This document shows positions 34,104 to 54,693 of a stretch of 64,000 nt of DNA, in pieces (positions within the stretch are counted from its first letter, which is position 1; each line of letters begins with the position of its first letter). The position numbers and the translations under genes were made by a program. The DNA comes from a virus. Location: IMG/VR virus record IMGVR_UViG_3300045988_183245, one strand, 5' to 3'. The notes under the pieces were generated by a model that was not told where the DNA came from, made no database searches, and worked only from the letters and a program-made list of their open reading frames with translations.

Positions 34104-34844
34104 ATGCGTATTTATAGCGCAAACAACGTATTCATAGAAGTTACGCGCCGATGCAATATGTGCTGTGCGCACTGCCTGCGCGGAGATGCCGAAAGCATCG
34201 ATATTCAGGAGAAGTACATCGATGCTTTTCTCGACAACTTTGAGAAGGGAGCTTATATCAGCTCTCTTACCTTTACCGGTGGGGAAATCTCTCTGAATAT
34301 ACCGGCAATTCGATACACCTTGAAAGCTGTCAAAGAGCGCGGTATCGCCGTTGGAAGCTTTTACATGGTCACTAACGGAAAAGCTGTCGATAAGATGGCT
34401 GACCTTGCTATGGCGAGTCTGGAGTGGTGGGCCTACTGCGATGAAAAAGATGACTATATGTGCGGTCTTTGCATCAGCAGTGATAACTTCCACGAAGTAA
34501 TCCCGTATGAAAGTAAAAGTATCCTTAGTGGCTTGAAATATAACCGTAACGATAAGGTAACGGACTTTCATCTGGCTTATTTACTGAACGAAGGGCGTGC
34601 TAAGAATCTCGATTCGAATATCTATAAGAAGCGTGAACCTCATGTAGACAAGCTCGAATACGAATTCAACAAAACCGGCGATATCGACTTTTACAGCGGC
34701 GAGCTGTACTTGAACGCCATCGGTGATGTCGTTTCCGGCTGTGATTGGTCCTACAAGTCGCAGAAGAAATATCGTTTTGGTAATGTAATGAACAAAAACT
34801 GGCTGGAGAACATTTCCAACAGCGAGTTGTACATTGCAAGCTAA
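34104..34844 (+). CDS. radical SAM domain protein (small; NrdG/QueE-like)
   Basis: CNMCCAHC gives the Cx3Cx2C cluster, and TFTGGEISL is a GGE SAM-binding motif. Confidence 0.55.
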   Translation: MRIYSANNVFIEVTRRCNMCCAHCLRGDAESIDIQEKYIDAFLDNFEKGAYISSLTFTGGEISLNIPAIRYTLKAVKERGIAVGSFYMVTNGKAVDKMADLAMASLEWWAYCDEKDDYMCGLCISSDNFHEVIPYESKSILSGLKYNRNDKVTDFHLAYLLNEGRAKNLDSNIYKKREPHVDKLEYEFNKTGDIDFYSGELYLNAIGDVVSGCDWSYKSQKKYRFGNVMNKNWLENISNSELYIAS

Positions 34845-34869: not shown

Positions 34870-37035
34870 GAAACCCACTGCGTGAGCGGTGGGAGGAATT
34901 GGCGCATGAGTTTTCAAGAATGATGAATGTGTACAATCTGTAAATAAGAAAGCTACTTGATTTCTTTTTGCATCAAAAAATATTATAATACCGATATAAT
35001 CAATCAAAGAAAGGAGGGCTATTATGGCTTTCGGAAACAAGAATAGCACGCCATCGTTTGCGTTGACTCTTTCCATGAAGGTCAGCAAACAGGATGAAAT
35101 TTTTCTTTCAAAAAAGTTTCGCATCGGATGTACGGTTTACAACCAAATGGTTACGAAAACCACAAAAATGTGGCATCAGCTGCGCAAAACACGTGAATAT
35201 AAAAACCTTATAAAAGCCATAAAAGTCGCTCCCGCCAACAGAGATGAACGGAAAGCACTTTTGGTGCAGCGTTCCAATCTGATTAAGCAAGCGGGCTTTT
35301 CTGAGGGTGCGTTCCACAAGTTGGTTGTGCCCTACCAGAAAGCGTACAACGTAAATTGCGATGTCGCTCAAAAAGTTGCGTCCGCCGTCTGGAAAGCGTG
35401 GGATGACTTCTTTTATGGAAAAGGAAAGACCGTACACTATAAAAAGTTGGACGATTTTGTGACCCTTTCCGGAAAGAAAAACAACAGCGGTATATTCTTT
35501 CGCCCGGCAAACCATACGGTGAGTTCGATGGAATCCGCTAAGCGAAAAGCGAAAAACTCTATCGAGAAAAAATACTTCGATGCGTACAGAAAACCCGACG
35601 CTAAAAAAGACGAAGAAGTAGTTCTTCCCGATGAAGTAAAAGCGCAAATGGACAAAGAGGTTGCCGATGCCACGGCGAAAATCAAACCGTATATCGGAGA
35701 AGGTAATCTGCGTATCATTTACGAGAAACACGAATTCCTTGTCAAAGTGCGCAACCCCGATACTCAAACTGGATGGTATCAACAGGAAGCGCTCAAATGC
35801 GGTGTGAAGTATTGCCGGATTGTTCGCTCATGGGTCGGCACCAAATGGAAGTATTACGCTCAACTTGTTTTGGAAGGCTATCCGCCCATCAAATGCGACA
35901 GTAACGGGGTCATAAAACACCCTGTTAAGCAGGGCCGCATTGGTATAGATATCGGCACACAGACTATCACGTTTTGCGGTAAAGATGTTTGCGACCTTCG
36001 TGTACTTGCACCGTCTGCCATAGCGGAAGCTCGCAATGGTCTTACCAAGGAAATCGCTCGCATTATGCGGCAAATGGACCGTTCGCGCCGTGCGATGAAT
36101 CCGCAATACTTTAACAAAAACGGAACCATCAAACGGCTAAAACGCAAGAACGGATATAAGCAAATTCGTCATTGGAACTATAGCAAAAACTATTATCGGC
36201 TGCTGTACAGGCTGCGGAATTTGAACCGCAAGCTTGCTGCCGTACGCAAGGCGGAGCATTATATTCTCGCCAACGAATTGCTGACATACGGCAACGAATT
36301 CGTAGTTGAAGATATGAACTACAAAGCCTTGCAGAAGCGCAGCAAGAAAACGAAAACCAACCCCAAAACCGGTAGAGCGCATTCCAAAAAGCGGTTTGGC
36401 AAATCTATAGGACGCTGCGCTCCAGCTTTGTTTATCACCATTTTGGGGCAAAAAGCAAGTCGTTGCGGAGGCAGTGTTATCAAGGTCAGTACCTTTGAAA
36501 CAAAAGCTTCGCAGTTTGACCATACCGACGATAGTTTTACCAAGAAAAAATTGTCCCAGCGTTTTGCTAAACTTTCTGACGGAACCGTTGTCCAAAGAGA
36601 TTTGTATTCCGCATTCCTTTTATTACATCTTAGGAAGAACCTTCAATCCTATAACAAGAAAACCATTAAAAAAGATTTCCCGCAGTTTAAGATGCTGCAC
36701 GACAAAACAAAAGAACGCTTGCAAAACAGCCACGAGTGGCTGCCTTGTAGCGTTGGCTTCTAAAGCACCTATAATTTAAGGGGGTTCGACGTAGCCCCAT
36801 TGATTGCCTTGAAGTGCCGCTTTCAGTAGCACTTGATAGGTGAAACCCTTGTCAAGGGGATATCTACACTTTTTATGCTGGCTCTTCGGGCATTTTGCCC
36901 TGCCTTTAAGCTTCGCTTTGGGTAGTAAGTACACTGGTCTATCGAAAGATAGTGTATCTGGCAGCTTTACGCTGTTGGAAAACCCTGTAACTGCATTGCG
37001 TCAGCATAGAATCCCACTCCGTGAGGGGTGGGAGT
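34870..37035 (+). mobile_element. IS200/IS605-family tnpB-only element
   Basis: Flanking hairpins cccactgcgtgagcggtggg (34874-34893) and cccactccgtgaggggtggg (37013-37032); the internal tnpB-like gene is intact. Confidence 0.6.
35024..36763 (+). CDS. tnpB: TnpB-like RuvC-fold protein lacking the canonical zinc finger (579 aa)
   Basis: GIDIGTQT (RuvC-I), VEDMNYKAL (RuvC-II), and QRDLYSAFLL in place of DRDvNAAiNI. No CxxC...CxxC. It is the intact paralog of the frameshifted copy at 9405-11151. Confidence 0.65.
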   Translation: MAFGNKNSTPSFALTLSMKVSKQDEIFLSKKFRIGCTVYNQMVTKTTKMWHQLRKTREYKNLIKAIKVAPANRDERKALLVQRSNLIKQAGFSEGAFHKLVVPYQKAYNVNCDVAQKVASAVWKAWDDFFYGKGKTVHYKKLDDFVTLSGKKNNSGIFFRPANHTVSSMESAKRKAKNSIEKKYFDAYRKPDAKKDEEVVLPDEVKAQMDKEVADATAKIKPYIGEGNLRIIYEKHEFLVKVRNPDTQTGWYQQEALKCGVKYCRIVRSWVGTKWKYYAQLVLEGYPPIKCDSNGVIKHPVKQGRIGIDIGTQTITFCGKDVCDLRVLAPSAIAEARNGLTKEIARIMRQMDRSRRAMNPQYFNKNGTIKRLKRKNGYKQIRHWNYSKNYYRLLYRLRNLNRKLAAVRKAEHYILANELLTYGNEFVVEDMNYKALQKRSKKTKTNPKTGRAHSKKRFGKSIGRCAPALFITILGQKASRCGGSVIKVSTFETKASQFDHTDDSFTKKKLSQRFAKLSDGTVVQRDLYSAFLLLHLRKNLQSYNKKTIKKDFPQFKMLHDKTKERLQNSHEWLPCSVGF

Positions 37036-38536: not shown

Positions 38537-38657
38537 TACTCCTAGAACGAAACTTTGATTCGGATTCTTTCAGCAGAAAGCGTAGGAACCAAAATCATAC
38601 GAAATGATTGTGTTAACACATAAAAACAAGTATAATATATGCAAGGAAGTGATAATA

Positions 38658-39110
38658 ATGGTTCTGTATCATGGCAGCGATGTAATAGTCCGCAACCCTG
38701 AGGTCAGAAAAACAAGGTACGCCAAAGATTTTTCATGGGGATTCTATTGCACTAGCAACTACGAACAAGCCGCTCGCTGGTCAAAAAAAGGCAGGTCTCG
38801 TGGTATTGTCAACGTGTTTGAATATACAGAATCTCCCATGCTAAATATTAAGAAATTCCCCGAAATGAGTGATGAGTGGCTTGATTTTATTGCTATATGT
38901 CGCTCGGGCAAACATCATGACTATGATATTGTGGAAGGACCCATGGCGGATGACACCATTTGGAACTACGTCAACGACTTTCTAAGCGGTGATATTAGCC
39001 GTGAAGCTTTTTGGGCGTTGGCAAAATTCAAGCATCCCACGCATCAAATCAGCTTTCACACGGAAGTCGCTTTGAAATGTCTCTCTTTTAAGGAGGCGAT
39101 TGAAGTATGA
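38658..39110 (+). CDS. DUF3990-like protein
   Basis: MVLYHGS...DFSWGFYCTS...QAARWSKK matches the remembered DUF3990 N-terminal pattern. Confidence 0.5.
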   Translation: MVLYHGSDVIVRNPEVRKTRYAKDFSWGFYCTSNYEQAARWSKKGRSRGIVNVFEYTESPMLNIKKFPEMSDEWLDFIAICRSGKHHDYDIVEGPMADDTIWNYVNDFLSGDISREAFWALAKFKHPTHQISFHTEVALKCLSFKEAIEV

Positions 39111-39577: not shown

Positions 39578-39614
39578 AAGACCACTGCCCCAAAAAGGGT
39601 GGTGGTCTTATTTT
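39578..39614 (+). terminator. rho-independent terminator
   Basis: gaccac...ggtggtc followed by a T9 run. Confidence 0.55.
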
Positions 39615-39794
39615 TTTGCACAATACTTACCATAAATTACCAGAAAGAAAAACATTGTGCATCTGTGCGAATTGCATATAATACAAAATATAGAACGAAA
39701 GGCATCAAAAAACATCGTTGGTCGGGCAAAATCCGACCGAAAGGCTAGGGCGGGCTCAGTTTTGAACCTGCTCTTTCTTTTTATCGGAGGCTTT

Positions 39795-40322
39795 ATGTCA
39801 AACAAAGAAGAACGCATGAACCGCAATAAAAGCATCATCGAAGATTACAAAAATGGAAAGCCGATTTTAGAAATCGCGAGGGAATATAATCTTTCAGAAA
39901 CGATGTGCTACAAGATTCTAAAAGGTACGCAGGAGCCGCCTCGTTATTTTGAAAAAAAGAGGAAGAGACTTACCACTCGAAATGAGCAAATTGTTAAACA
40001 GTATAAAGGCGGTATGACGGCCAGAGAATTGGGCAAGATGTACGGCATTTCCATGCAGCGTATTTATGCAATCTTGCATTCGAGCGGAGAGTACGAAAGC
40101 CAAAAATACAATCATATTGAAACGGCTCTCAAAAAAGAGAAAAAGATGCGGAACCAAACTTTTCTTGATGCTTACAAGAAAAATCCTCGAAAATCGATTA
40201 TCGAGTTGAGCAGGGAGGTAAATATCAGCCCTTCACTAGGTTACCTTATCCTTCATCAAAATGGGATTTACCAGTATAACGTAAAAGCCAGAGCTAAGGA
40301 GAATAGCGAAAATGCCGATTAA
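39795..40322 (+). CDS. tandem-HTH repeat protein (three units)
   Basis: RBS ggagg; repeated motif Y..G....EL...Y.(I/L)S...(I/C)Y.IL. Confidence 0.6.
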   Translation: MSNKEERMNRNKSIIEDYKNGKPILEIAREYNLSETMCYKILKGTQEPPRYFEKKRKRLTTRNEQIVKQYKGGMTARELGKMYGISMQRIYAILHSSGEYESQKYNHIETALKKEKKMRNQTFLDAYKKNPRKSIIELSREVNISPSLGYLILHQNGIYQYNVKARAKENSENAD

Positions 40323-40830
40323 CAAGATTACCCACGTGTGTCTAACTCATGACAAAGTCAGAGCACGAAATGAAAAGATGCTGGAGGATGCCAAGAACGG
40401 TATGTCCCAGGAACAGCTGGCCGAAAAGTATCAAATTTGTGTTTCTACTGTCCGATATAGTCTGAAGGACTTTTACAAAGAACAGGCCCGGCAGAGGAAA
40501 GCAAAGAAGAAAGCCTGGCAAACCCAGATGATTCATGAATATGAGATGGGCGCAAAATCTCCGGAGCTCCAGGAAAAATACGGCATCAGTGGAACGCTCT
40601 TTTATCGGATTCTTCATACGCACGGAAAGAATGGCCGACAAATCCACAGCCAAAACCGTATCGAGACTGGCAAGAAAAGAAACGCCGAGATGGTCAGGAA
40701 ATACAAAAACGGCGTTTCTGTCAAAGAGCTTGCGGAAGAATACGGGCTCAAAAAGGGAAGCGTATATCGCGCCATGAAGCGGTATAGTCCAGGCCCAGGG
40801 AAAAGTAAAAGTTGTCAAAGTGAGGAATAA
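40312..40830 (+). CDS. tandem-HTH repeat protein (three units)
   Basis: Same repeat family; overlaps the previous gene by 11 nt. Confidence 0.6.
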   Translation: MPINKITHVCLTHDKVRARNEKMLEDAKNGMSQEQLAEKYQICVSTVRYSLKDFYKEQARQRKAKKKAWQTQMIHEYEMGAKSPELQEKYGISGTLFYRILHTHGKNGRQIHSQNRIETGKKRNAEMVRKYKNGVSVKELAEEYGLKKGSVYRAMKRYSPGPGKSKSCQSEE

Positions 40831-40834
40831 TTGC

Positions 40835-41788
40835 ATGGCTGCATCAAAGAAAGATGTTGCGAAGCAGCAGGTCAAAGAAGACCGCGAAAAGGTTCGGGAA
40901 ATGTATCTTTCTGGCAAAACTGTCAAGGAAATCGCCAAGGAAACGTATTTTTCAAGCTCTTATTGCTATGCCATGGTGAGAGACCTAGCAAAAGAAAAGA
41001 ATCTTGCAAAGAAAGCAAAAAGAGCACCTCTCGACGAAGCTATGATTCAAGATGCGAAAGCCGGGATGACGGTTGCTGAAATCGCAAAGAAGCATGGCGT
41101 GACCTATCAGCAGTGCTACTATACTGTTTCTGAATACGCTCAAGCTACGATTAAGAAGAACAAGAAAAAGCAGTCTGCTGCCACGAAAGTTCGCAATGCG
41201 GCTATGTTGGAAGATGCGAAAGCCGGAATGACTGATAAGGAAATCGCCAAAAAATACTTTTTGTCTCGAAGCAGTGTCCGTACCGTCCTTGCAGGGCATT
41301 TACATACAAATTCCAAAAAGTTGGATGAAAGGCGCAAGGCAATTCTTGCGGATTATGAGGCAGGAACGTCCTCAAAAGACATCTGTGAGAAATACGGTAT
41401 TTCAAAATCCACTCTTTACAAGGACATGCGCCAAATTGGAAAAACCTGTCAGGAATACTATCACAAGGCGCTGAAAGACAAGACCAATCAAAGGAATTCC
41501 GATATTCGAAGCAAAATCGAAAGAGGGGTCTCGGTCAGCACTATTGCCAAAGAATACGGAATCTCTAAAACGGCGATTTATGAAACGTTTCATCAGGAAA
41601 ATGTCAGAGCTGGAATTTTACAGAAACGCGGCCGTCCGCGAAAAAACACGGAACGTAATGCACTGATTGCTAAACGCCACAGGGAAGGCGAGAAGGTGCA
41701 GGCGCTTGCCACTGAATATAATCTCTCTGTTTCGACGGTAAACACTATTTGCAGTAGAAACAAAAATCAGAATATTGCATCACATTAA
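40835..41788 (+). CDS. tandem-HTH repeat protein (six units)
   Basis: Six copies of the A.AGMT..EIAKK(Y/H)G.S...(V/Y)Y repeat; RBS gaggaataa. Confidence 0.6.
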   Translation: MAASKKDVAKQQVKEDREKVREMYLSGKTVKEIAKETYFSSSYCYAMVRDLAKEKNLAKKAKRAPLDEAMIQDAKAGMTVAEIAKKHGVTYQQCYYTVSEYAQATIKKNKKKQSAATKVRNAAMLEDAKAGMTDKEIAKKYFLSRSSVRTVLAGHLHTNSKKLDERRKAILADYEAGTSSKDICEKYGISKSTLYKDMRQIGKTCQEYYHKALKDKTNQRNSDIRSKIERGVSVSTIAKEYGISKTAIYETFHQENVRAGILQKRGRPRKNTERNALIAKRHREGEKVQALATEYNLSVSTVNTICSRNKNQNIASH

Positions 41789-41834
41789 CAGGCTGCCATT
41801 TGGCGGCCTTTTCTTTTTTGGAGGAAATAATAAC

Positions 41835-42749
41835 ATGACAGACGACGTACGAAATCTGATTCGATTTGTAGTGGATGGCGATATTCGAAACGCGCAGACT
41901 CAGTGCCGAATCATGCTTGAAAAGAATGTACCCGAAAAGGACGCCAGGTTCAAAGAAAACGAACTCAGAAAGTTGAATCTTCTGAAGCCGGAACTGATTC
42001 AGCTGCCCACCAACCTGGAAAACCTCTTGATTGCGGAGGATGCCACGAATTTCCCTGAGAGCCGGTTCCTGCTCCGCGAGGAGGAAGAAACAGTCATCAA
42101 CAAGCTCTTGGCCACCAGAAAAGCAGCTTTAGCCATCAAGGAGCTTGGCATCCACTATACTTGCTCTTTGCTTTTGACGGGCCTTCCTGGTGTTGGTAAG
42201 ACTGAATTGGCCCGCTACATTGCACACAAGGCGAATTTACCGTTTGTTTTCCTGAAATTCTCTGGCCTTGTCAATTCTGCTCTTGGCCGGACACAGCAGA
42301 ACATCGGCAGAGTGTTCGATTACGCAAAGCGCACGCCTTGTGTTCTTTGTGTTGATGAAATTGATGCCATCGGAATGTGCCGTGGCAGCCGCGATGATGT
42401 CGCTGAAATGAGCCGTGTCACCATCGCATTGATGCAGGAACTTGACCGGCTCCCGAATGACGTCATTCTCATTGGCACTACAAACCGCGTCGATAACCTT
42501 GACGAAGCCCTCATTCGCCGATTCACTTTCAAACACCGCGTCAAACCTTTAGGCGACGATGACATGAAAGAACTGTGCAAGAAGTTCCTTGCTTCGGCAG
42601 ACTATCCCTTCACGGAATCCGAACTCGACGAACTCTGCCATTCGCTGCGTGAGCAGCGGACTGCCAGCGCCGTTGTCAATGCCTGTACAGAACGTATCGT
42701 TGCACATATCGTATCGCAGCTGCCTGAAAATTCGGCAGATGCCGTGTAA
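41835..42749 (+). CDS. classical AAA+ ATPase
   Basis: Walker A LLTGLPGVGKTELAR, Walker B VLCVDEIDAIG, and sensor-1/SRH GTTNRVDNLDEALIRRF. Confidence 0.7.
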   Translation: MTDDVRNLIRFVVDGDIRNAQTQCRIMLEKNVPEKDARFKENELRKLNLLKPELIQLPTNLENLLIAEDATNFPESRFLLREEEETVINKLLATRKAALAIKELGIHYTCSLLLTGLPGVGKTELARYIAHKANLPFVFLKFSGLVNSALGRTQQNIGRVFDYAKRTPCVLCVDEIDAIGMCRGSRDDVAEMSRVTIALMQELDRLPNDVILIGTTNRVDNLDEALIRRFTFKHRVKPLGDDDMKELCKKFLASADYPFTESELDELCHSLREQRTASAVVNACTERIVAHIVSQLPENSADAV

Positions 42750-42753
42750 AAGT

Positions 42754-43452
42754 ATGATAGCCTGGGAAGAAAGCCCTCGTCAGTTTAAGATGTCCAAGCA
42801 ACTCGATGAGGGAAAATTCGGAGAAGACTTGGCTCGCAAATTCCTTAACGACCCGATTATCAAAGTGAATCATGGCATTAGCCATTACGATGACGTGACT
42901 CAGGATAAATCATATCAAGACAAAGATACCGATTTCATTGTCTGGAAGAAGAATGGTAAGACCTTTGGCCTGGAAGCGAAAGTGGACAGCCACAATACCG
43001 GAAATTTCTACCTGGAAACCTCGGTGGACTACTTCTCCATGGTGCCTGACGCTCTGAACGAACAACGGGTAGCGCGGCGGTATCGGGATGGCATCGACCC
43101 TTTATGGCACACCCCGGGCTGGGTATACAGGAGTGGTGCGGACCAGATTCTCTATTATTTCAGAACCACGCAGCTGCTTTACATTTTCTCCCGCGTTGAT
43201 GTCTGGTTCTATGCTGAAAAGCTGATGCGCGGTGGAATCCATCTCGACCCCGGAATCAGAAAGCCAAAAATGTATTCTGCCGAAAATATCAGTGAACGCA
43301 ATGGTTCCACTCTCTTCTTTGCCAACGGCTTATGCGTGAATGCAGAGCAGACATACAAGGCTTTAGGGGCGCAAAAAAGAGTCATTAAATACCAGGTTGA
43401 GAACCCGAATTCAGACGTCCCAACGTTCAGCTTTTGCCCTTTCAAATTATGA
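42754..43452 (+). CDS. PD-(D/E)xK nuclease-like protein
   Basis: DTDFIVWKK...GLEAKVDS is a D..(E)xK core. The start codon is 5 nt after the AAA+ stop. Confidence 0.45.
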   Translation: MIAWEESPRQFKMSKQLDEGKFGEDLARKFLNDPIIKVNHGISHYDDVTQDKSYQDKDTDFIVWKKNGKTFGLEAKVDSHNTGNFYLETSVDYFSMVPDALNEQRVARRYRDGIDPLWHTPGWVYRSGADQILYYFRTTQLLYIFSRVDVWFYAEKLMRGGIHLDPGIRKPKMYSAENISERNGSTLFFANGLCVNAEQTYKALGAQKRVIKYQVENPNSDVPTFSFCPFKL

Positions 43453-43639
43453 ATTTTCCGCTAACAATCGACAAAAAATCACATTTCAGTTCAGCGGAAG
43501 AGTATAATTGTAGTAGAAAGAGAGGAAAAAAGCATGAACCAAATCAACGTTGTCACGATTGGGAAACTCATTGAAGCGCATCGTGGAGGTGACGAGCAGA
43601 AGTTCAAAACTCACGTCGATTTTATAAAAACAAGCCGGG

Positions 43640-45018
43640 AAAACCCACGACTTTAGTCGTGGGATGAAAGGCGTTAAGAACGAATCAATTCACGCTGCAT
43701 ATCCGCAAGATGGACAGCATTTTTTTGCTGTCAAAGCGTGCGAATTGCGTACCATAGATAGTAGATTCTAAAGAAAAGGAGGCTACTACTCATGCGTCTG
43801 GTTGTTAAAACTTACAAGTATAAGCTGTACAACAGTAAAAAGAACAGATACCTGGTGCGCCAGATTGAACTTGCCTCCGAGATTTGGAATTTTTGCATTG
43901 CTATGCGGCGTATGTACTATTTGGTCTATGGCAAAACGCTTAAAGCCAATGATTTGAAAAAGTACATTGCTAAAATCTGCAAGCGCCGCAAGTGGGCACA
44001 TTGACATAATCTCGGCAGCCAGGCGATTCAGGATGTGGTGGAACGGGTTGACCGTGCCTATAAAGCCTATTTCGATAATAAGAAAAAGGAGCATCCCAAA
44101 AAGAAGTCCCTACCAAAATTCAAGAAGCGTGAACTGTACAAAAGTTTTACACTCAAGCAAGCAGGCTACAAGTTTGAAGGAAAAGGCCGCATTACCATCA
44201 ATGGCAAAAGGTATCGGTATTTTGATTCTCGGCCATTGAAAGGTAAAGTGAAAACCTTAACCGTCAAGCGCGACAATTTGGGCGACATCTATATTTTTGC
44301 CGTCACGCAGGAAGAATACAATGAAGTCCTTCCACGAGCAGGTAAAGCTGTCGGGATGGATTTCGGCTTAAAGCATTTCCTCAACCTGGATGACGGCAGT
44401 GTGATAGATTCTCCTCAATGGTATAAAGCCTCCCTGAAAGAGCTGAAGACCATACAACGTCACATTTCACGCTGCAAAGCAGGCAGTAATAATCGCAAGA
44501 AAGCTATCAAGGAGTTAAACCGCATCTATCGAAAGATGTGTAATCAACGCACCGACTGGTTCTTCAAGACTGCCTATCAGCTGATTGGAGATTATGCCAT
44601 CATCTGCATTGAAGACTTAAATCTTGCGGGGATGCAAAAACTCTGGGGACGCAAAATCAACGATATTGCGTTCGGTGAGTTTGTTCAAATTCTCGAGTGG
44701 GCGGCATCCAACTGCGGCACAGAGATTGTGAAAATCGACCGCTTTGCGCCATCCAGCAAGTGCTGCAGCCGCTGTGGGTATATCTATACGAAGCTCACGC
44801 TCAAGCAGCGTGAATGGGATTGCCCTTCCTGCGGCACACACCATGAGAGAGACGTCAATGCAGCTATCAATATATGCCGCATGGGATTAGTCCAAATGGG
44901 CTACCCTGCGTAAAAATACTCTCACGGATGGGGCACCATGCCGTTACCGAGAGGCGTAAGACTGGGTCAGCCAGCGGCCTCGTTGAAGTAGAATCCCACG
45001 ATTTTAATCGTGGGAGTG
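43640..45018 (+). mobile_element. IS200/IS605-family tnpB-only element with an inactivated tnpB
   Basis: Perfect palindrome cccacgactttagtcgtggg at 43644-43663 and cccacgattttaatcgtggg at 44995-45014, bracketing the tnpB. Confidence 0.65.
43792..44913 (+). pseudogene. tnpB: tnpB interrupted by an in-frame TGA (70-aa and 292-aa ORFs share one frame)
   Basis: Both ORFs are in frame 1 and are separated only by TGA at 44002-44004. The C-terminus has GMDFGLK, ICIEDLN, CSRCGY...CPSCG and ERDVNAAINI. Confidence 0.7.
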
Positions 45019-45212
45019 TGTCAATGTCAAAGCCTACGACCAGAAGCGTCCGGTAGAATATGCGGATTATAAGCCGGGGATGCTGTATGTCAGCGTATAT
45101 GAGGTGTTCCCACACATCTAAGAAAATCAAAATAAGAAGTTCTACCCAGTTCAGTGTGGGCTTTTTTATCGAGAGTGCCGCAAAGACTACTGGCTCACGG
45201 AGGTAACCGACA

Positions 45213-45413
45213 ATGGTAACGTTTCTTGATGATGATGATATCGAACTAAAGCCTTGCCCGTTCTGTGGTTCTACAGCCGGGTTATATGCAAGCTATGAAG
45301 GCATGTATGCAGTGCGGTGCAACTACTGCCGCATCGGAACTGTCCTCATAAAAAACGAACAGGACGCGATTGAGTTGTGGAATCACAGAACGGAGGTAAC
45401 GAACGATAACTAA
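45213..45413 (+). CDS. lar: Lar-family restriction-alleviation zinc-ribbon protein
   Basis: 66 aa with LKPCPFCGS...C..C, characteristic of Lar. Confidence 0.6.
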   Translation: MVTFLDDDDIELKPCPFCGSTAGLYASYEGMYAVRCNYCRIGTVLIKNEQDAIELWNHRTEVTNDN

Positions 45414-45432
45414 CGCAGACAAAGCAATTGCA

Positions 45433-46245
45433 TTGCGCCCATCATACTGGGCAAGCGTATCTGGCGGAAAAGATAGCCTGTATATGCTCAATTACATACT
45501 GCACAATCTGGACAGATACCCGCTTGACGGCGTGGTTCACTTTGAACTCGAAATCGACTACCCGTTTATACATAACGTTATCGACTATATGGAAACGGAG
45601 TGCAAGCGAGCTGGCATCCAATTTGTGCGAATCAAGCCGAGGAAAACGTGGGAAGAATTGTATGATAAATGCGGTTTCCCAACAAGAAAAGTAAGATGGT
45701 GTAACGGTCACTATAAACTTGATGCAAAGCGGCAACTATCCGAATGGCTGAACGAAGTCGGTTTTTATGTAGTAAATTACATAGGCTATTGTGCCGACGA
45801 AGAACGCCGTTTCAACAAGCGGTTGAGTGCCAAAAAGTTAGAGATATACCCTCTCGCAGAAAACGGCATTAACGAAGATGTGATTTTGGAATGGGCAAAG
45901 ACACAGCCTATTTTCAACAACTACTACAAAACCAACAAGCGCTGCGGTTGTATGTATTGCCCGATGTCCTCGTTTCTTAACTTTGCCTATCTCTATAAAT
46001 ACTACCCCGAAAATTTCCGGTATATGCTTGAAAAAATGCGGGAAACGGAAGAATTGAGAGAGAAAGAGCTTGGTAGACCGTTCTCTGTGATTTCATCGAA
46101 TCCCAAATATAATGCGGATTACTTGGAACACATCGTCAAAACGAAATGGCTCAAAAAGCTCAACGAAATGGAGGTAACCAACAATGACTATGTCGATGCG
46201 TATTGCGTCGGTGTGGATGTGGATGGTCACACCACTGTCCACTAG
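45433..46245 (+). CDS. PAPS reductase / PP-loop family protein (phage-type)
   Basis: N-terminal SGGKDS PP-loop motif and a C-terminal Cys cluster CGCMYCP. Confidence 0.65.
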   Translation: MRPSYWASVSGGKDSLYMLNYILHNLDRYPLDGVVHFELEIDYPFIHNVIDYMETECKRAGIQFVRIKPRKTWEELYDKCGFPTRKVRWCNGHYKLDAKRQLSEWLNEVGFYVVNYIGYCADEERRFNKRLSAKKLEIYPLAENGINEDVILEWAKTQPIFNNYYKTNKRCGCMYCPMSSFLNFAYLYKYYPENFRYMLEKMRETEELREKELGRPFSVISSNPKYNADYLEHIVKTKWLKKLNEMEVTNNDYVDAYCVGVDVDGHTTVH

Positions 46246-46391
46246 GTTGCATTAAAGAGTATTGGCAAAAAGGTGCTTTATCGAGTTTAGCTGTGGGGAG
46301 AATGTCAATTGGGTGAAAGCATGAGCGGTGAACCAAAAGTAATCACTTCCTTTGAGGAAGCACCGCAATCGTTCGCACTCGCGAAAAGAGA

Positions 46392-47285
46392 GTGACTTCT
46401 TACGATGCAATTCTTACGAACATTCGGAAAGCCCAGCAAGAGAAGCAAATGCAAAGCATTGAGAAGGAGCAGTCGCTCCGACATCGAGAAGTATTCTCCG
46501 GAGGTCATAATGCGGTAAGAAGCAAAAAGCAAACGGATGCACTTCTCAACGAGGATGTCTCGAAGCTCTCTAATGCCGATATTGAGAAGGTCCTCACTTT
46601 TATCCGCACAAACGCCGAGACTTTCCGCCAAAAGCTTTGTAAGCTGTACATAACCCAGCAGAAAAAGCAAATCGACGTCAAAAAAACGATTGAGAAATCC
46701 GTCCAGTGTGATGGCGAGATTGCACGACTGTACTACAAAAAGCCGATAAAGTCCAAAGCAAATGTCGTGATGCTGGCGGATATTTCCGGGTCTTGCCGCG
46801 CTATGACTTCTCTCGCTCTGACATATATGGGTTTGATGCGGGAAGTTTTTCCCGGCGGCTGCCACCTGTTCGTTTTTGTGAATCACTTAGTTCCTGTTGA
46901 CCGTTATTTCTCAAACGAGAATGTAACGGCTGCTGTGGAAAGTATCAACAAGAATGTCCCCAGCCGAGGTATCTACTCAAACTACGGTATGCCTCTCAAA
47001 GAACTGCGCTACGATAATACCGGAATCATCAATAAGGATACTACTATCGTTATGCTGGGTGACTGTCGAAACAACAGGAACTATTCCGGTGTGGAAGAAG
47101 TAGAATGGCTTTCTAAGCGAGCATCCAACTTCTTCGTTCTGAACCCTGAACCGCGGGACGAATGGGGACAGGGTGATTCCATTGCCGACCTGTACGCGAA
47201 AAGTGGCGCTGTGGTTTCCATGGTAGGTTCGGCTAAAGATTTGCTGACTTTCCTGCAATCTGCCGGAACCACAAGGCATTTTTGA
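46392..47285 (+). CDS. vWA domain protein (CoxE-like)
   Basis: MIDAS motif VVMLADISGSC (DxSxS), plus downstream T and D residues in a VWA-like arrangement. Confidence 0.5.
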   Translation: MTSYDAILTNIRKAQQEKQMQSIEKEQSLRHREVFSGGHNAVRSKKQTDALLNEDVSKLSNADIEKVLTFIRTNAETFRQKLCKLYITQQKKQIDVKKTIEKSVQCDGEIARLYYKKPIKSKANVVMLADISGSCRAMTSLALTYMGLMREVFPGGCHLFVFVNHLVPVDRYFSNENVTAAVESINKNVPSRGIYSNYGMPLKELRYDNTGIINKDTTIVMLGDCRNNRNYSGVEEVEWLSKRASNFFVLNPEPRDEWGQGDSIADLYAKSGAVVSMVGSAKDLLTFLQSAGTTRHF

Positions 47286-47638: not shown

Positions 47639-47714
47639 TGCTGGTTTAGCTCAGCTGGTAGAGCAACTGACCTGTAATCAGTCGGTCATCGGTTCAAGTC
47701 CGATTTCCAGCTCC
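47639..47714 (+). tRNA. tRNA, anticodon loop CCTGTAA (putative TGT / Thr); atypical
   Basis: Cloverleaf with D-arm gctcagctggtagagc and T-arm atcgg-ttcaagt-ccgat, CCA encoded. There are two U-U mismatches at the base of the acceptor stem, and C33. Confidence 0.5.
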
Positions 47715-48540
47715 AGACGCTATCCGTTGGATGTATCGAAATCACATGATACGATGCTATACACAACATCTGGCGGACAGCATGCCACCCATTAAGGCGG
47801 CCTCCTCGTGGCGGGTGGCGGACAGCGGCTCTTGCGGCTGCTGACGAATGTCTTAGAAGCATGCAAACGTACGAGCATCCCCGTCAAGTCGGGGCGCATC
47901 CAGACGCGACACAGCCGTAAAGGCGAGATTGCTGCACGGCAACTGGTAAGTTTCGCCGCAGTCTCACACACAGCCCAACGACAACCGTTAACCCGATTTG
48001 ACAGGGAATCAACGACAGGGCTCAAAATTTGAAGTTGACCAACACCCAAGCGCTTTCTTGGATTCTCGCGTATCGTCAACGATGAGGTTCGCAAGATTGT
48101 CAGGTGGTGTGAAGATGACATCCGGGGATGACGACCTACTAAACGGATGTCATGGCGGGGCTAAGTGAGGGTTCACCCGCAATCTTATGCAGGTATCGTA
48201 TAACGGCTAATACTCCGCCCCTCCAAGGCGGAGACGCGGGCTCGACCCCCGCTACTTGCTCCACACGTCGCCGCCACCGTACGCCACGACATTAAATTTG
48301 GCGAGCATGGTCCACATGTGGTCCGCTGTCCGAATGCCAATGGACAGCCTATAAAAGAATAGGCAAACAGGTGCTGTGCCTGAGAGTATCCGAGAGTCCC
48401 GGTGTCAGTCGCGAATGAGGCCGGAAAACGGCGGGGAGGGTACTATACAGAATCCGTCGGCGTGGCTGCTGAATGGTACTGGAAGAAAGGGTTGGCTGCC
48501 CTGATTGCGGGATGATAACCAGTATAAAACATCCTAACAT

Positions 48541-48616
48541 GCCTGATTAGCTCAGTTGGTAGAGCAGCGCATTCGTAACGCGCAGGTCGGCAGTTCGAAC
48601 CTGCCATCAAGCCCCA
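48541..48616 (+). tRNA. tRNA-Thr (CGT)
   Basis: Acceptor gcctgat / atcaagc, D-arm gctcagttggtagagc, anticodon loop ttCGTaa, T-arm ggcag-ttcgaac-ctgcc, CCA encoded. Confidence 0.6.
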
Positions 48617-48654
48617 TCACCAAATTAAGCGATAATAGGAAGGAGATGAATTCT

Positions 48655-49038
48655 ATGGAACAGGCAATTATCAATGTTGAAGGTACGACTACCATAGAAA
48701 CCGCTGCAGCAGCCAAAAAGCTGATTGGGATGCTTGGCAATCAGAACGTCCGCGCCATCTCGGTCAATCGTGTGAACGATAAGAGCGATGAGGTCATTGT
48801 CGAACTTGATTTCGTGCCTGGCTTGGCACCGCATCTGCACGGCTTTACACTTCAGGTTAATGGCTTGACCTGTGGTTATGCTGGTACTGGTCCTTCCAAT
48901 CTGTATGAAGTCCTGCAGGCGGCTGGCGTGAGTGAAGCTCAGGTAGCACGCGAGGACATCACTCAGAAGAGCACAAAAACCATTCCTCTGCGCCTGGAAC
49001 GCGCCGTGACTCAGTACGGCGACTTCCAATTTGCGTAA
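48655..49038 (+). CDS. hypothetical protein (127 aa)
   Basis: RBS aggaagga upstream of MEQAIINVEG. The longer ORF would overlap the tRNA. A hairpin ggcgggcttaacccgcc follows the stop. Confidence 0.5.
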   Translation: MEQAIINVEGTTTIETAAAAKKLIGMLGNQNVRAISVNRVNDKSDEVIVELDFVPGLAPHLHGFTLQVNGLTCGYAGTGPSNLYEVLQAAGVSEAQVAREDITQKSTKTIPLRLERAVTQYGDFQFA

Positions 49039-49068
49039 CGCTATTTGGCGGGCTTAACCCGCCATCAT

Positions 49069-49144
49069 GGAGGGATAGCTTAGCTGGATAAAGCACCTGC
49101 CGCAAAGCAGGGTATCGATGGTTCGAGGCCATCTCCCTTCTCCA
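49069..49144 (+). tRNA. tRNA-like gene with an aberrant anticodon arm (possible pseudo-tRNA)
   Basis: Acceptor, D and T arms are good (ggaggga / tcccttc; gatgg-ttcgagg-ccatc; CCA). The anticodon arm only pairs as cctgc-cgcaaa-gcagg, giving a 6-nt loop. Confidence 0.35.
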
Positions 49145-49506
49145 TCCAGACACCCTTTCGCTTCCTTCCGCCAAAGGTATCTGGGGTATTGTACTGCATT
49201 GCGTGTAGTACGGCCAATCAGGCGCGGAACTCCGAAACCATACCACGAAGAATTTTATCCTCTCCGCGCAGCATGGACATGCGATTTTACGGGGATAAAT
49301 TCAAACCGAAATTGTGTCGAGTGGCGAAGACGGTTGCGGCACTGGCGAAGCACATATCTGCTTCGTCAACCATCCATGAGAAAGCCTCCACGCGGCGGAT
49401 GGTGGGCAACGCAGCAAAGCTGCGGCTGATTTCTCCTTAAATCGGTATCTGAATAAATGCAGATAGATAATCACAAAAAAATTAAAAGAACAAAGGAGTA
49501 CACAGC

Positions 49507-50640
49507 ATGAGCAATCAGAAAATCATGAAAGCAATCGCAGGGATTGCAGCAGCCGGTATGATGGCAACTTGTCTGCCTGTCGCAGCGTTCGCAGCCACCG
49601 GTGACACCTACCATTTCTCTTTCAGCAATGGTTCTTCCCAGGACCTGGCTCCGGGCGGTTCTATGACGTTCCCGGCAAGTCAGTATGACTACGGCTACTG
49701 GATTACCCTGCAAGGCCATGGCGGGTATACCTACAACTACTATCCCGGCGACACTCTGCCGTACGATGCAGTTGACCAGTGGTTCACCACTGACGGCATC
49801 ACTTCCTGCTATGCGGCTGAGGGCAATCCGCGTTCCATCACCATCAACTACCAGATTGACGGCAACACGGTGCTGACCGAGACTGACACCGCCACTTTCC
49901 CGGGCAGTGTTGATGGTCAGAGTGTTGAAGCCTGGACCACGGATTCCGGTGATACTTACACCGCATCCAGCAAGAGCCTGAACCATGACCGCCTGTTCTA
50001 CTACCTGGGCGACGACATCCACGACAACGTCCTGACCCTGAAAGCCACTTCTGCATCCACTCCCGACGACGGCAAGGATGACAACAAGGGCGATGACAAG
50101 GGTGATGTTACCAAACCCGACGATAAGGACGACAACACTGGTGACAATACCGGTGACAACGGCACCACCACTCCTGATGACAAGGGCGACGTTGTGGCTC
50201 CTGATAAGGGCAACACCGGCAAAGACAACACTTCTACCGGCTCCAATAAGGGTAACGGTACTACCACCACTACTCCGACCGCTCCTCGCAAAAACGTTGA
50301 GGTTTCTGAACATGGTGAAATTGCCGCCGCTATTGCCAATGGCACCTGGGGCAATGAGTACACCGTCTGTACCAGCTGTGGCTATCACAACTGGACCCGC
50401 AAGGGTAACGTTTACGTCTGTGACCATTGTGGTCATGAAGTCCTGACTGTTAAGGGCGCTGATGGCGTCAAGGGCTATGCTGGTACTCTGGCTGGCAACG
50501 AGCCCCAGTACGCTTCTACCTCTGAAGCTCAGGCTGCTGCTGAAAAGCGTGAAGCCGCTTATGCCGCTTCCATCGCTGCTCTGCAGGCACAGGTTGCCGC
50601 TCGTGAAGCTGCTTATGCCGCTTCCCTGGGCATCCACTAA
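49507..50640 (+). CDS. secreted Thr/Asp/Gly-rich repeat protein with a C-terminal zinc-ribbon-like CxxC..CxxC
   Basis: Signal peptide MKAIAGIAAAGMMATCLPVAAFAA; repeats D(D)KG(D/N)..; CTSCGYHNW...CDHCGHE. The antisense 388-aa ORF is rejected. Confidence 0.6.
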   Translation: MSNQKIMKAIAGIAAAGMMATCLPVAAFAATGDTYHFSFSNGSSQDLAPGGSMTFPASQYDYGYWITLQGHGGYTYNYYPGDTLPYDAVDQWFTTDGITSCYAAEGNPRSITINYQIDGNTVLTETDTATFPGSVDGQSVEAWTTDSGDTYTASSKSLNHDRLFYYLGDDIHDNVLTLKATSASTPDDGKDDNKGDDKGDVTKPDDKDDNTGDNTGDNGTTTPDDKGDVVAPDKGNTGKDNTSTGSNKGNGTTTTTPTAPRKNVEVSEHGEIAAAIANGTWGNEYTVCTSCGYHNWTRKGNVYVCDHCGHEVLTVKGADGVKGYAGTLAGNEPQYASTSEAQAAAEKREAAYAASIAALQAQVAAREAAYAASLGIH

Positions 50641-50723
50641 TTTGCCATCCTCTAACTAACGGTAATCGATAGTTTTTTCTCCTTGCTGTGGGGCGGGATT
50701 TCGGTCCCGCCCCATCCTTTTGT

Positions 50724-50811
50724 GGTCAGATGTCCGAGTGGTTTAAGGAACTGGTCTTGAAAACCAGCGACGCCGCAAACGTCCGTGGGTTCAAATCCCA
50801 CTCTGACCGCC
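50724..50811 (+). tRNA. tRNA-Ser (TGA)
   Basis: Class II tRNA: acceptor ggtcaga / tctgacc, anticodon loop ctTGAaa, long variable arm, T-arm gtggg-ttcaaat-cccac, CCA encoded. A terminator gccggggtttcccggcTTTTT follows. Confidence 0.7.
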
Positions 50812-51199
50812 AAATTTTTGCCGGGGTTTCCCGGCTTTTTGTTTTTGTGAGCAACACAAGGCAACAGATTGCTATATCGAATAGGGTTATGTATACAACT
50901 GGAGCGTCAAAAGGAAAAGCACGAGGACTCCCGTTCTGGAAACAACGAATGGTTCTGCTGAAATCAAGGTGCCAATCGACCTGGCTTTGGCTGACTATGA
51001 GTCCAGGATGGCTGAGCCTTTAAGCGAGTTGTGTTCGTGTGAGGACATACCGTTCTCGAATGCAATAGCGCGGATTGCTGCTTGGAGACCGGTCAAACAA
51101 TGAGTGCGGGCCTGCCATTATTTTTACGAAAAGCCTTGACTTTGACTTTTACATATTGTATAATTAAGACGCTGAATTTGATGAAAGGAAAATTGCACG

Positions 51200-51301
51200 A
51201 TGTTTGCTGCTATGATGAACAAACAGAATAAATTGCAAAAGCTGTGGAGCAATTGGAATCTCTTCGGCTGTTTTTGTGTTGTCTGTTTGTGCAAATCATA
51301 G
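51200..51301 (+). CDS. possible small Cys-rich hydrophobic peptide (33 aa)
   Basis: MFAAMMNKQNKLQKLWSNWNLFGCFCVVCLCKS. It lies downstream of a strong sigma-A-like promoter TTGACT-17-TATAAT (about 51140-51170) and an RBS aaagga. Confidence 0.3.
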   Translation: MFAAMMNKQNKLQKLWSNWNLFGCFCVVCLCKS

Positions 51302-51469
51302 TACAGTGATGGTTGAATAAAATCAGCCAAGTATCGGTTGTTTTCCGCACTCTGCACGATATGAGCACCTGTCAGACACACAACGCCTGATGGGTGCTTT
51401 TTTGATGCAGAAAATCAGAATCAGGTCACTCTAATGCCGCTGGAGTGAATTCCAGCCAGGCTTATTAAA

Positions 51470-51850
51470 GTGTATGCTATTATACAGAATGTATATTCGA
51501 GGATTCGCCAAACGGTAAGGCATCAGGCTTTGACAAACGAAACAGAACAATCGCTAAAAGAGTCTCTGCAGCAGACCGCCGAAACCATAAAAATCAATAT
51601 TGTAGAAATGGAATGCATGCCTGACCATATTCACCTGTTGGTGGAGTGTTCACCGCAGCATTTTATCCCGGATATGATAAAAGTGCTTAAAGGCAACAGT
51701 GCAAGAGCTATTTTTATCGCCAATCCGGACTTGAAGAAGCAACTTTTGGGCGGGCATCTTTGGAACCCAAGCTACTTTATTGCAACCGCCAGTGATAACA
51801 CGCGCAAACAAGTACAAGAATACATTGCATCTCAAAAAATAAGAAACTGA
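51470..51850 (+). pseudogene. tnpA: tnpA (IS200-type Y1 transposase), N-terminally truncated (GTG start; the first beta-strand is missing)
   Basis: Has the HUH motif MPDHIHLLV and WNPSYFIATAS, but no upstream in-frame sequence for the conserved N-terminal strand (a stop lies 5 codons upstream). Confidence 0.55.
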
Positions 51851-51868
51851 TGAAATGGGGGCTTCGCA

Positions 51869-53200
51869 GTGGAAATCACTTCCAGCTATGCTGTGGAAAT
51901 CAAAAAGCAGAAAATGTTCGACAATACTATAAAGATTTATCGCGAAGCCGTTTCTTTCTTGATTGGTTGTTTTAACAAAGAATGGGATTCTATTCAAAAA
52001 GTAGAGGGTGCCAAATCTCGAAAGAGTTTTGCCGAGAAGTTAATTCATACTACAAAATACAGCACTGCTAAATATGATTTCGATGCCAAGTTTTATAAGT
52101 TCCCTAGTTACCTGCGCAGAGCGGCTATTCAAGCAGCACTCGGCTCTGTAAGCAGCTACTACAGTAGCCATAAGAACTGGGAAGCAAACGGCAAGGTTGA
52201 CAGGGAGCCAAAACTTCAATGCGATAGATTTTGCTTCCCGGCTTTTTATAAGACCGTTATGTATGAGGAAAGCAACAAACCAAACCAGTGCTATCTGAAG
52301 CTGTATAAAAACAATGACTGGGTTTGGATTCCTATTGCAATGCGTGCCACCGATGTCAAATACATCACGAAATACTGGTCACATTGCGAAAAGAGTGCTC
52401 CCTCCCTCGAAAAGAAGTATGGAAAATATTTTCTTCGCTTCGCTTTCGTGGAGAAGGTAGAACTCTCTGAAACTGAAATTCAAGACAGGCGTATCTGCGC
52501 TGTAGACCTTGGCCTCAATACTGACGCCGTGTGCAGCATCATGACTGCCGATGGAACTGTCCTTGCAAGAAAATTTATCAATTTTGCAAGTGAAAAAGAC
52601 CATCTGTATCATGTGCTCAACCGTATTAAGCGTAAGCAAAGAGAACATGGACCTAAGAGTGCTGCTGCTATGTGGCGTTACGCCAAAGCCTTGAATAACG
52701 ATATAGCGAAAAAGGTTGCTGCTGCGATTACTGAATTTGCTGTGCTTTATTCTGTAGATGTGATTGTTTTTGAACATTTGTCATTTACAGGCAAAAAGCA
52801 CGGTGGCAGTAAGGCACAGAAGCTGTCGATGTGGAAGCGTAATTCTATACAGGATTATGTGGAACACAAGGCGCACCGCTGCGGTATCCGGATTTCGCGT
52901 ATCTGTGCTTGGGGGACAAGCAAACTCGCCTTTGATGGCAGTGGTGCTCTCAAGCGTGATGAAACCAATCGTGCCCTTGCAACGTTTGCAAGCGGCAAAC
53001 AATACAACTGCGACCTAAGTGCGAGCTACAATATTGGCGCTCGCTACTTTGTCAGAGAGTTGCTAAAACCCTTGCCAGCGATGGTAAGGTCTCAGCTTTC
53101 GGCTAATGTTCCGGATGTTGAGCGTAGAATCCAAGTTACACTTGCCACGCTTAAAGTTCTGTATCCTGAGCTTAAAAAACTCAGTACACAGGCAGCGTAA
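51869..53200 (+). CDS. tnpB: TnpB-like RuvC-fold protein with a degenerate zinc finger (443 aa)
   Basis: AVDLGLNT (RuvC-I), VIVFEHL (RuvC-II), WGTSK...CDLSASYNIGARYF (RuvC-III analogue). There is no CxxC pair. Confidence 0.6.
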   Translation: MEITSSYAVEIKKQKMFDNTIKIYREAVSFLIGCFNKEWDSIQKVEGAKSRKSFAEKLIHTTKYSTAKYDFDAKFYKFPSYLRRAAIQAALGSVSSYYSSHKNWEANGKVDREPKLQCDRFCFPAFYKTVMYEESNKPNQCYLKLYKNNDWVWIPIAMRATDVKYITKYWSHCEKSAPSLEKKYGKYFLRFAFVEKVELSETEIQDRRICAVDLGLNTDAVCSIMTADGTVLARKFINFASEKDHLYHVLNRIKRKQREHGPKSAAAMWRYAKALNNDIAKKVAAAITEFAVLYSVDVIVFEHLSFTGKKHGGSKAQKLSMWKRNSIQDYVEHKAHRCGIRISRICAWGTSKLAFDGSGALKRDETNRALATFASGKQYNCDLSASYNIGARYFVRELLKPLPAMVRSQLSANVPDVERRIQVTLATLKVLYPELKKLSTQAA

Positions 53201-53464
53201 GATGTAGGCTAACTGTGACAATTAGCTTTCTTGCGGTGAGTTTGTTCTTCGGGACTTGCTTGCTGAGGGATTGCTGTACCATTTCGTTAGCAAGTTCCTC
53301 TCCTTAAAAGAAGGGAAGCCCGCGACTTTAGTCGTGGGAGGATTCACCCTGACAACGGTTGTTCGACTCGACCATTCTCGACCAACGCTCACTTTCATGC
53401 GCATCGGAAGTGAGATTCCTCAAAGCTGTGTTCCCATAAGCAAGGCACGGAAGATGCGCGACAA

Positions 53465-53541
53465 GTGCTCGTAACTCAATCGGTAGAGTACCCGACTTTT
53501 AATCGGGGTGTTCGGGATTCGATTTCCCGCGAGCGCACCAT
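53465..53541 (+). tRNA. tRNA-Lys (TTT)
   Basis: Anticodon arm cccga-ctTTTaa-tcggg, T-arm cggga-ttcgatt-tcccg, CCA encoded. Confidence 0.7.
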
Positions 53542-53571
53542 GCCCGGCAGAGCATTATCTGCCACTTTTGT

Positions 53572-53647
53572 GGGTGTATAGCTCAGTAGGCAGAGCGGCG
53601 GACCGTTAATCCGTTTGTCGCAGGTTCAAATCCTGCTACGCCCGCCA
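53572..53647 (+). tRNA. tRNA-Asn (GTT)
   Basis: Anticodon loop ccGTTaa, D-arm gctcagtaggcagagc, CCA encoded. Confidence 0.7.
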
Positions 53648-53650
53648 TAA

Positions 53651-53728: not shown

Positions 53729-53757
53729 TGTCCGACAGTACAACAACTGCCATTTAT

Positions 53758-53833: not shown

Positions 53834-53836
53834 TAT

Positions 53837-53911: not shown

Positions 53912-53918
53912 TCCATAT

Positions 53919-54690: not shown

Positions 54691-54693
54691 TCT

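Follow-up and report, generated by a model that had tools for sequence, protein, structure and literature searches.

Gabija, PARIS, Septu and Lamassu, defence systems that combine an ATPase with a nuclease, use ABC/OLD/SMC-type or helicase ATPases rather than classical AAA ATPases, and their genes are reported to co-occur as a rule. Closer in its ATPase to the locus described here is IetAS, in which IetA is reported to act as the antitoxin of the protease toxin IetS, and whose anti-phage mechanism is unknown (PMC13069673). We analyzed a 64,000-nucleotide stretch of viral DNA (hereafter the window, meaning the whole stretch) in which a AAA ATPase gene, gene A, is followed directly by a gene for a nuclease-like protein, gene B. 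An earlier note on this DNA had proposed that the two genes form a two-gene defence cassette. Comparison with related loci gives that proposal no support: the AAA gene mostly occurs without B, B also occurs without the AAA gene, direct adjacency is confined to one lineage, and the context is that of a phage.

Layout and context of the locus

The features of the locus are as follows.

39657..41788, + strand: three tandem genes made of repeated Mor/HTH_23/HTH_28-type helix-turn-helix (HTH) units (Pfam, PHROG)
41790..41809, + strand: terminator-like hairpin of 8 pairs (6 G-C) followed by a T-run (consensus match only)
41820-41824: ribosome-binding site of gene A, GGAGG (sequence)
41835..42749, + strand: gene A, ATG start, 304-aa IetA-like ATPase of the classical AAA type that has no IetS partner
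42754..43452, + strand: gene B, predicted 232-aa nuclease of PD-(D/E)xK fold from a small, unannotated, phage-borne family
43535..43655, + strand: remnant, about 40 codons long, of a small gene that lies 3' of B in relatives, cut by the insertion sequence (sequence)
about 43626..45023, + strand: IS605-family element with TnpB only (OrfB_IS605 and a Cas12f1-like TNB domain; Pfam, sequence)

As described in the earlier note, the pair thus sits between the multi-HTH array (39657-41788) and an insertion sequence. The latter is an IS605-family element and has a truncated small gene before it. The hairpin falls in the gap that follows the last HTH gene and precedes the GGAGG of gene A. For gene A, the ATG at 41835 is favored over an upstream TTG at 41775 because its homologues begin MND. 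The TAA stop of gene A is followed by 4 nt and then by the ATG of gene B, and no ribosome-binding site is recognizable in the sequence 5' of gene B. Given this gap, the shared strand and the lack of a recognizable site, A and B are almost certainly co-transcribed and possibly translationally coupled. Downstream, gene B is separated from the IS605-family element by the remnant at 43535-43655, whose intact counterpart is a 147-aa homologue in a related locus (L029, 8216-8659). The borders of the element were set by alignment with three relatives (L011, L019 and L001); homology of the window to all relatives ends at 43625, and the tnpB frame contains an in-frame TGA at 44002-44004.

The IMG/VR viral contigs with stretches near-identical to the locus measure 27-158 kb, and those of relatives reach 346 kb. 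The window carries 17 tRNA genes at 47.6-55.1 kb together with several TnpB/IS605-type elements, Lar, a DUF3990 protein, a radical-SAM protein, a metallo-beta-lactamase-fold protein and a PAPS-reductase-like protein. The locus belongs to the accessory DNA of a large, tRNA-rich phage; it is no bacterial defence island. Another candidate partner for gene A was the VWA_CoxE gene at 46392-47285, with which it would make an AAA-VWA (MoxR/CoxE-like) pair. We set this idea aside because only one other related locus (L019) has VWA_CoxE.

Between the alleles of the window and of the related locus L001, dN/dS was 0.03 for gene A and 0.05 for gene B at a dS of about 0.55, indicating that both genes are maintained by selection. 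The contrast between this dS of 0.55 and the 0.07 of the neighboring HTH gene had hinted that A and B might be exchanged between phages as a unit. This idea was rejected by a sliding-window comparison, in which the HTH array is the outlier, being unusually similar (about 98%), and A-B lies at the background divergence (83-90%).

Gene A, a classical AAA ATPase related to IetA

The gene A protein contains the motifs for which the earlier note had called it a classical AAA ATPase, namely GLPGVGKTELAR (Walker A), CVDEIDAIG (Walker B) and GTTNR...LIRRF (sensor 1 and arginine fingers), and the call is upheld by profile matching (Pfam AAA, PF00004, E 4e-29, 102 bits against a cut-off of 21.2). The functional residues are G119-T123 in Walker A, D174-E175 in Walker B, N217 at sensor 1 and the arginine fingers R228/R229. 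The presence of GLPGVGKT, VLCVDEID, TTNR and ALIRRF places the protein among the classical AAA ATPases, and the motif residues are invariant across the alignment of its family. Among PDB sequences, VAT, p97/Cdc48 and Rix7 matched at 1e-31 to 1e-36. At pore loop 1, a position matched by eye and without a structure to the M-F-V-G of FtsH, members of the window clade read S-A-L-G or S-S-L-G, the window protein having Ala where an aromatic residue is usual. Outside that clade, family members have Tyr or His at the position, and S-Y-L-G is read both among these and in a true IetA.

The family is not confined to this phage. Gene A matches phrog_3757, a phage family without assigned function, from end to end (residues 3-300, E 6e-60), so the ATPase family is already catalogued in phages. 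A search with the AAA protein returned 509 proteins at E<=1e-10; the roughly 100 non-chimeric matches among the best 120 of these show 49-69% identity at a length of about 300 aa. Where homologues were found in genomes, these belonged to Oscillospiraceae, Christensenella and other Clostridia. The gene A family is one of widespread classical AAA ATPases of about 300 aa, borne on phages and plasmids.

We next compared gene A with the ATPases of known defence systems; the earlier note had matched the pairing to none of PARIS, Gabija, Septu and Lamassu. Gene A does resemble a known defence ATPase: it proved to be clearly IetA-like, though not part of an IetAS system. Four PADLOC models of IetA matched at 8e-56 to 5e-29, the best of them spanning residues 47-295, whereas TRIP13 was far weaker (4e-14). 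In NCBIfam the best family was "anti-phage ATPase IteA" (NF042959) at 169.5 bits, compared with about 80 for PAN, CDC48 and FtsH; this score is far below the curated equivalog cut-off for IteA of 510. When gene A was aligned with the IetA proteins of Paenibacillus phage Yyerffej and Pseudomonas phage PfAC08, each of which is followed by an S8 peptidase, the AAA core proved common to both families (Walker A, Walker B, the S-x-L-G-x-T pore-loop region and the RRF arginine-finger motif). The N-terminal helical domain was likewise alignable, and full-length identity to the phage-borne IetA proteins was 28-29%. A difference lies at the C-terminus, where both phage IetA proteins of this alignment carry an HTH extension, which is not an established defining feature of IetA; gene A is about 65 residues shorter and has no HTH tail.

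The protease partner is also missing. An HMM built from seven IetS proteases matched all of the positive loci (L115-L131, L176 and L177), and found no IetS anywhere in the 64 kb of the window, nor in 113 loci from the gene A family. Pfam likewise gave no S8 protease match in gene B. Taken together, the IetA-like scores below the cut-off, the missing HTH tail and the missing IetS indicate, at the level of sequence, that gene A is a sister of IetA without IetS and not an IetAS component.

Gene B, a predicted nuclease of a small family

Gene B had no match in Pfam, PADLOC, PHROGs or NCBIfam, and its profile had none among PDB sequences. Searches of GenBank phages by megablast of the region and tblastn of gene B also found nothing. 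A word-indexed homologue search returned near-identical sequences and, also when run with a profile, hardly any distant ones. In an exhaustive HMMER scan covering 1.84 billion representatives, 84 relatives were found, the distant ones at 23-40% identity over the matched stretches.

The protein contains DTDFIVW and LEAKVD, in which the earlier note had seen a DxD...EAK core like that of restriction endonucleases. In an alignment of 25 members, 23 of them at 20-32% identity to the window protein and one a 93% allele, E24, D58, D60, E74, K76, D78, E88, G122 and Y134 are invariant. Invariance across such divergent family members indicates that the DxD and ExK motifs are not due to chance. Structure prediction agreed. 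With a deep alignment that included the distant relatives, the AlphaFold model reached a pLDDT of 89.1 and a pTM of 0.85; the distant relatives were needed, as near-identical sequences alone gave a pLDDT of 28. The model has the alpha-beta-beta-beta-alpha-beta core of the PD-(D/E)xK fold, with E24 on helix 1, D58 and D60 where strand 2 begins, and E74-x-K76 within strand 3. Both the invariant residues and the predicted fold thus bear out the nuclease-like core proposed for gene B.

Foldseek gave the homing endonuclease I-Ssp6803I as the top PDB match (probability 0.99), and the neighbors in the viral structure library BFVD were uncharacterized phage proteins, some of them named RecU. Fold scores were moderate and do not tell the nuclease classes apart. 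Helix 1 and strands 1-3 of the predicted protein are common to NhoI (8q5n), I-Ssp6803I (2ost), RecU (1y1o) and Hjc (1gef, 2wcw), at only 9-16% identity; these nucleases have 120-170 aa, whereas gene B has 232 aa, with extra beta-rich elements in its C-terminal half. Family-wide invariance and the placement of the site in the model support the nuclease call as far as fold and active site are concerned. We infer from these features that gene B is a predicted metal-dependent DNA endonuclease with an intact E...DxD...ExK site. Its family is a new, small PD-(D/E)xK family, usually found among phage DNA-metabolism genes.

Co-occurrence of the two genes

To ask whether A and B travel together, we fetched 160 loci from viral and genome collections and searched each for members of the two families by profile. 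Database proteins that were truncated or chimeric (AAA-B, B-VWA, and AAA with unrelated enzymes), many of which look like assembly artefacts, were left out as evidence. Among the 107 loci with a full-length AAA gene of the family, B lay 3' of it in 37 and no B homologue was found in 70, 59 of which had at least 3 kb on both sides. Clustering the AAA proteins at 80% identity gave 22 clusters, of which four had B and 14 informative ones had none (14 of the 18 informative clusters). The conserved synteny that the cassette proposal called for therefore largely fails.

Where the two genes do occur together, their spacing varies (neighborhood table). Direct adjacency, at 4 nt, was seen only in the window's own lineage, with AAA proteins 97-100% identical, and there B is intact in 19 of 19 loci. 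Elsewhere in the clade other genes intervene. The gap is about 0.5 kb, with a DUF4379 gene between, in five loci (L009, L029 and L031-L033), 0.74 kb in L034, and 1.9 kb, with a 394-aa multi-HTH gene and a DUF4379 gene between, in L035-L047. Ordered by AAA identity, the intervening genes are a DUF4379 zinc-finger gene at 63%, a 246-aa DUF4379 gene at 61%, and a multi-HTH gene with DUF4379 at 57-59%. Across the clade, with AAA proteins at 57-64% identity, the order AAA...B is kept on one strand within 2 kb, and multi-HTH genes lie upstream of the AAA gene in all B-linked lineages.

In a neighbor-joining tree of the AAA proteins, all B-linked members fell in one clade, indicating a single origin of the linkage and not a repeated independent association. 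This clade also includes a B-less group (L024), sister to the window lineage. Outside it, the neighbors of the AAA gene are the plasmid genes Rep, ParA and RHH, on contigs of 55-60 kb, or SSB, MazG-like, YopX-like and metallophosphatase genes. At the B-less loci whose downstream gene was inspected, no conserved or obviously toxic effector stood in B's place. In L096-L099, a GIY-YIG-like gene, identified by eye without a profile, directly follows the AAA gene.

Conversely, five lineages have B without a AAA gene in the available sequence (L006/7, L010, L171, L172/3 and L174/5), some of them with short flanks (1.3 kb upstream in L010, 0.2 kb downstream in L174). In these, B adjoins Dam, DUF1064, PAPS reductase, SocA and dCMP deaminase genes. 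A further candidate, L008, was discarded as uninformative, since its contig breaks off within the HTH gene found after the AAA gene in the L035-type arrangement.

Co-occurrence and adjacency across independent genomes, as would be expected of a dedicated two-gene system, were thus not found in these loci. Nor does the locus lie in a bacterial defence island or show a defence-model match for both genes, the context being that of a phage and B having no PADLOC match.

Interpretation

We consider it probable that A and B, in the early/regulatory region of a large gut-Clostridia phage, are accessory genes separable from each other, and not a dedicated two-gene defence system. Gene A would form a ring, presumably a hexamer, and with ATP remodel or hold a partner protein. 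As no conserved neighbor encodes such a partner, it probably comes from the host or from a gene elsewhere in the phage. One appealing guess is that gene A neutralizes an IetS-like or other toxic host effector, which would make it an anti-defence or anti-addiction factor; in a related reading, IetA homologues that stand alone on phages and plasmids could mimic an antitoxin and disarm IetAS-type systems of the host. Gene B would act as a metal-dependent DNA endonuclease, with the DUF4379 zinc-finger protein as its likely DNA-binding partner: in the closest B lineages the DUF4379 gene precedes B, and it is B's more consistent neighbor in the clade.

The 4-nt spacing is most simply accounted for by loss of intervening genes, the zinc-finger gene and in some arrangements the HTH gene having presumably been deleted in the window lineage alone. 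Tight gene packing is the norm in phage genomes, and the comparative evidence points against coupling.

The alternative that survives best is an IetAS-like module with a swapped effector, in which B, as a toxic nuclease, takes the place of IetS and is held back or licensed by the IetA-like ATPase. Such a module would serve as a toxin-antitoxin, superinfection-exclusion, abortive-infection or addiction system. Effector swapping is common in defence systems, and several features of the locus would fit: the 4-nt gap and the lack of a ribosome-binding site of B's own, the terminator-like hairpin that sets A-B apart from the HTH array, the equally strong purifying selection on both genes, and the A-B order kept across the clade. 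The likeness of gene A to IetA also extends beyond the AAA core, the PADLOC match at 8e-56 covering residues 47-295 and the N-terminal domain being alignable, and IetA is reported to be the antitoxin of a toxic protease (PMC13069673). We nevertheless regard this reading as unlikely. The AAA gene lacks B in 70 of 107 loci and in 14 of 18 informative clusters, with no conserved or obviously toxic gene in its place at the inspected B-less loci, and B has relatives without any AAA gene. Moreover, every sister lineage has DUF4379/HTH genes between the two, the linkage arose only once in evolution, and B has no PADLOC model. The fuller version, in which the pair is a new IetAS-type module whose ATPase keeps a PD-(D/E)xK DNase in check until a trigger, giving the phage superinfection exclusion or self-maintenance, seems to us rather improbable.

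Gene B might instead be a free-standing homing-type or selfish endonuclease, with or without a separate zinc-finger DNA-binding partner, whose position beside the AAA gene is incidental. B, which resembles I-Ssp6803I-type homing endonucleases in fold, is patchily distributed: within an otherwise syntenic phage clade it is missing from the L024 group, and in L091 homology breaks off inside the gene. The stretch just 3' of B is hypervariable among near-identical phages, L010 has two tandem B paralogues, and the GIY-YIG-like gene seen by eye after the AAA gene in L096-L099 would be in keeping with this reading. Yet homing endonuclease genes usually decay, whereas B is intact throughout the window lineage (19 loci) and under strong purifying selection (dN/dS 0.05 at dS 0.55). 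Among the compared loci we found no target site and no presence/absence polymorphism with precise borders, and we hold this explanation to be quite doubtful.

Very improbable, finally, is that B is a structure-specific phage nuclease (a RecU/Hjc-like Holliday-junction or branched-DNA resolvase) or an early nuclease degrading host DNA, unrelated to A: some BFVD neighbors are named RecU, and in other phages the family is found next to genes of replication and nucleotide metabolism (Dam, DUF1064, dCMP deaminase, PAPS reductase), but the family is small (84 in 1.84 billion representatives) and patchy, unlike an essential resolvase, the moderate fold scores do not discriminate between classes, and the extra beta-rich C-terminal elements are absent from Hjc and RecU.

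If the reading of A and B as two separable genes is true, the locus defines a small family of PD-(D/E)xK nucleases from gut phages that had no model before. It would also mean that PADLOC-style IetA matches without IetS mark a large and distinct family of AAA proteins of about 300 aa, carried by phages and plasmids of Clostridia, and that such matches are not to be taken as defence systems. The locus would then be an example of tight phage gene spacing mimicking a "cassette". Were the swapped-effector module true, it would provide the first alternative effector for an IetA-type ATPase and a handle on sensing and firing in IetAS, the mechanism of which is unknown (PMC13069673).

Comparison with known systems

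The true IetA loci that we examined all have IetS, whereas the neighbors of the gene A family are variable phage and plasmid genes. Neither gene A nor gene B matches the PADLOC models of Gabija, PARIS, Septu or Lamassu. The locus resembles these systems in its arrangement, since Gabija (GajAB), PARIS (AriAB), Septu (PtuAB) and Lamassu, like A-B, have an NTPase gene and a nuclease gene on one strand. It differs from them in that their partner genes are reported to occur together as a rule, whereas A and B are mostly found apart.

Gene neighbourhood of the nuclease gene

In the sister lineages, where other genes lie between the IetA-like AAA ATPase gene (A) and the PD-(D/E)xK-fold nuclease gene (B), the B homologue is directly preceded on its 5' side by a gene for a DUF4379 (treble-clef zinc finger) protein, which abuts or overlaps it. 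Examples come from four related loci:

L009, 7517-8044: DUF4379 gene upstream of the B homologue
L029, 6875-7432: DUF4379 gene upstream of the B homologue
L036, 8135-8800: DUF4379 gene upstream of the B homologue
L008, 966-1703: DUF4379 gene upstream of the B homologue

B has DUF4379 beside it more consistently than it has the AAA; the window lineage, with A and B directly adjacent, has no DUF4379 gene beside B. The metagenomic contig L010 carries two B-family genes in tandem (1345-1977 and 2091-2717), the second of which is far more divergent, scoring 47.5 bits with the family profile.

A variable stretch follows B

The region 3' of B is a variable hotspot (window 43626-47174, compared with related loci L011, L013, L019 and L001). 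The relatives carry 0.6-0.7 kb of different sequence in place of the following genes of the window:

43626-45023: IS605-family element
45213-45413: Lar
45433-46245: PAPS-reductase-like
46392-47285: VWA_CoxE

Databases also hold chimeric proteins of the B-VWA, AAA-B and VWA-AAA types (P0019, P0030, P0039, P0024, P0036, P0144), which suggests deletions in this stretch or chimeric assemblies spanning it. In the element adjoining B, tnpB is interrupted by a single in-frame TGA, with the ORFs on either side (43792-44004 and 44035-44913) sharing one frame; it could be a pseudogene or contain a recoded stop. Three further TnpB-like genes lie in the window and are listed here after this one:

43792-44913, +: tnpB beside B, in-frame TGA at 44002-44004
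22431-23540: TnpB-like gene
35024-36763: TnpB-like gene
51869-53200: TnpB-like gene

Divergence of the upstream multi-HTH array

The three tandem multi-HTH genes upstream of A either have been recently exchanged or are unusually constrained, because the array is ~98% identical to its relatives (window 39600-41700 against L001, L004 and L023), whereas the DNA flanking it, A-B included, reaches only 83-90% identity to the same loci, and dS is 0.07 for the array versus 0.55 for A-B.

Surroundings of AAA homologues elsewhere

In the virus-labelled IMG/VR contigs L048-L089 (55-60 kb), genes for a RepB-like initiator, a ParA ATPase and an RHH protein were seen by eye just 5' of the AAA homologue; judged in this way from the sequences, these contigs look like plasmids or phage-plasmids. 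Three Christensenella-type loci (L096, L097, L099) encode a 268-aa protein directly after the AAA (for example, L099 6893-7699), whose C-terminal YIYLITKKTTGEFYVGQT...RWAQH resembles, by eye, a GIY-YIG nuclease motif.

Other features of the window

Islands of tRNA genes are a typical feature of large phages, and the window contains one:

47640-55146, +: tRNA island, 17 tRNA genes

One member (49069-49144) was called as 'tRNA-???', with a two-base anticodon (ca) in a six-base anticodon loop, CGCAAA. Three other genes in this region are candidates for counter-defence or DNA modification:

34104-34844: radical-SAM protein
38604-39110: DUF3990 protein, weak ART-PolyVal match
29425-30606: metallo-beta-lactamase-fold protein, whose homologue in L001 faintly matches Anti-Pycsar Apyc1
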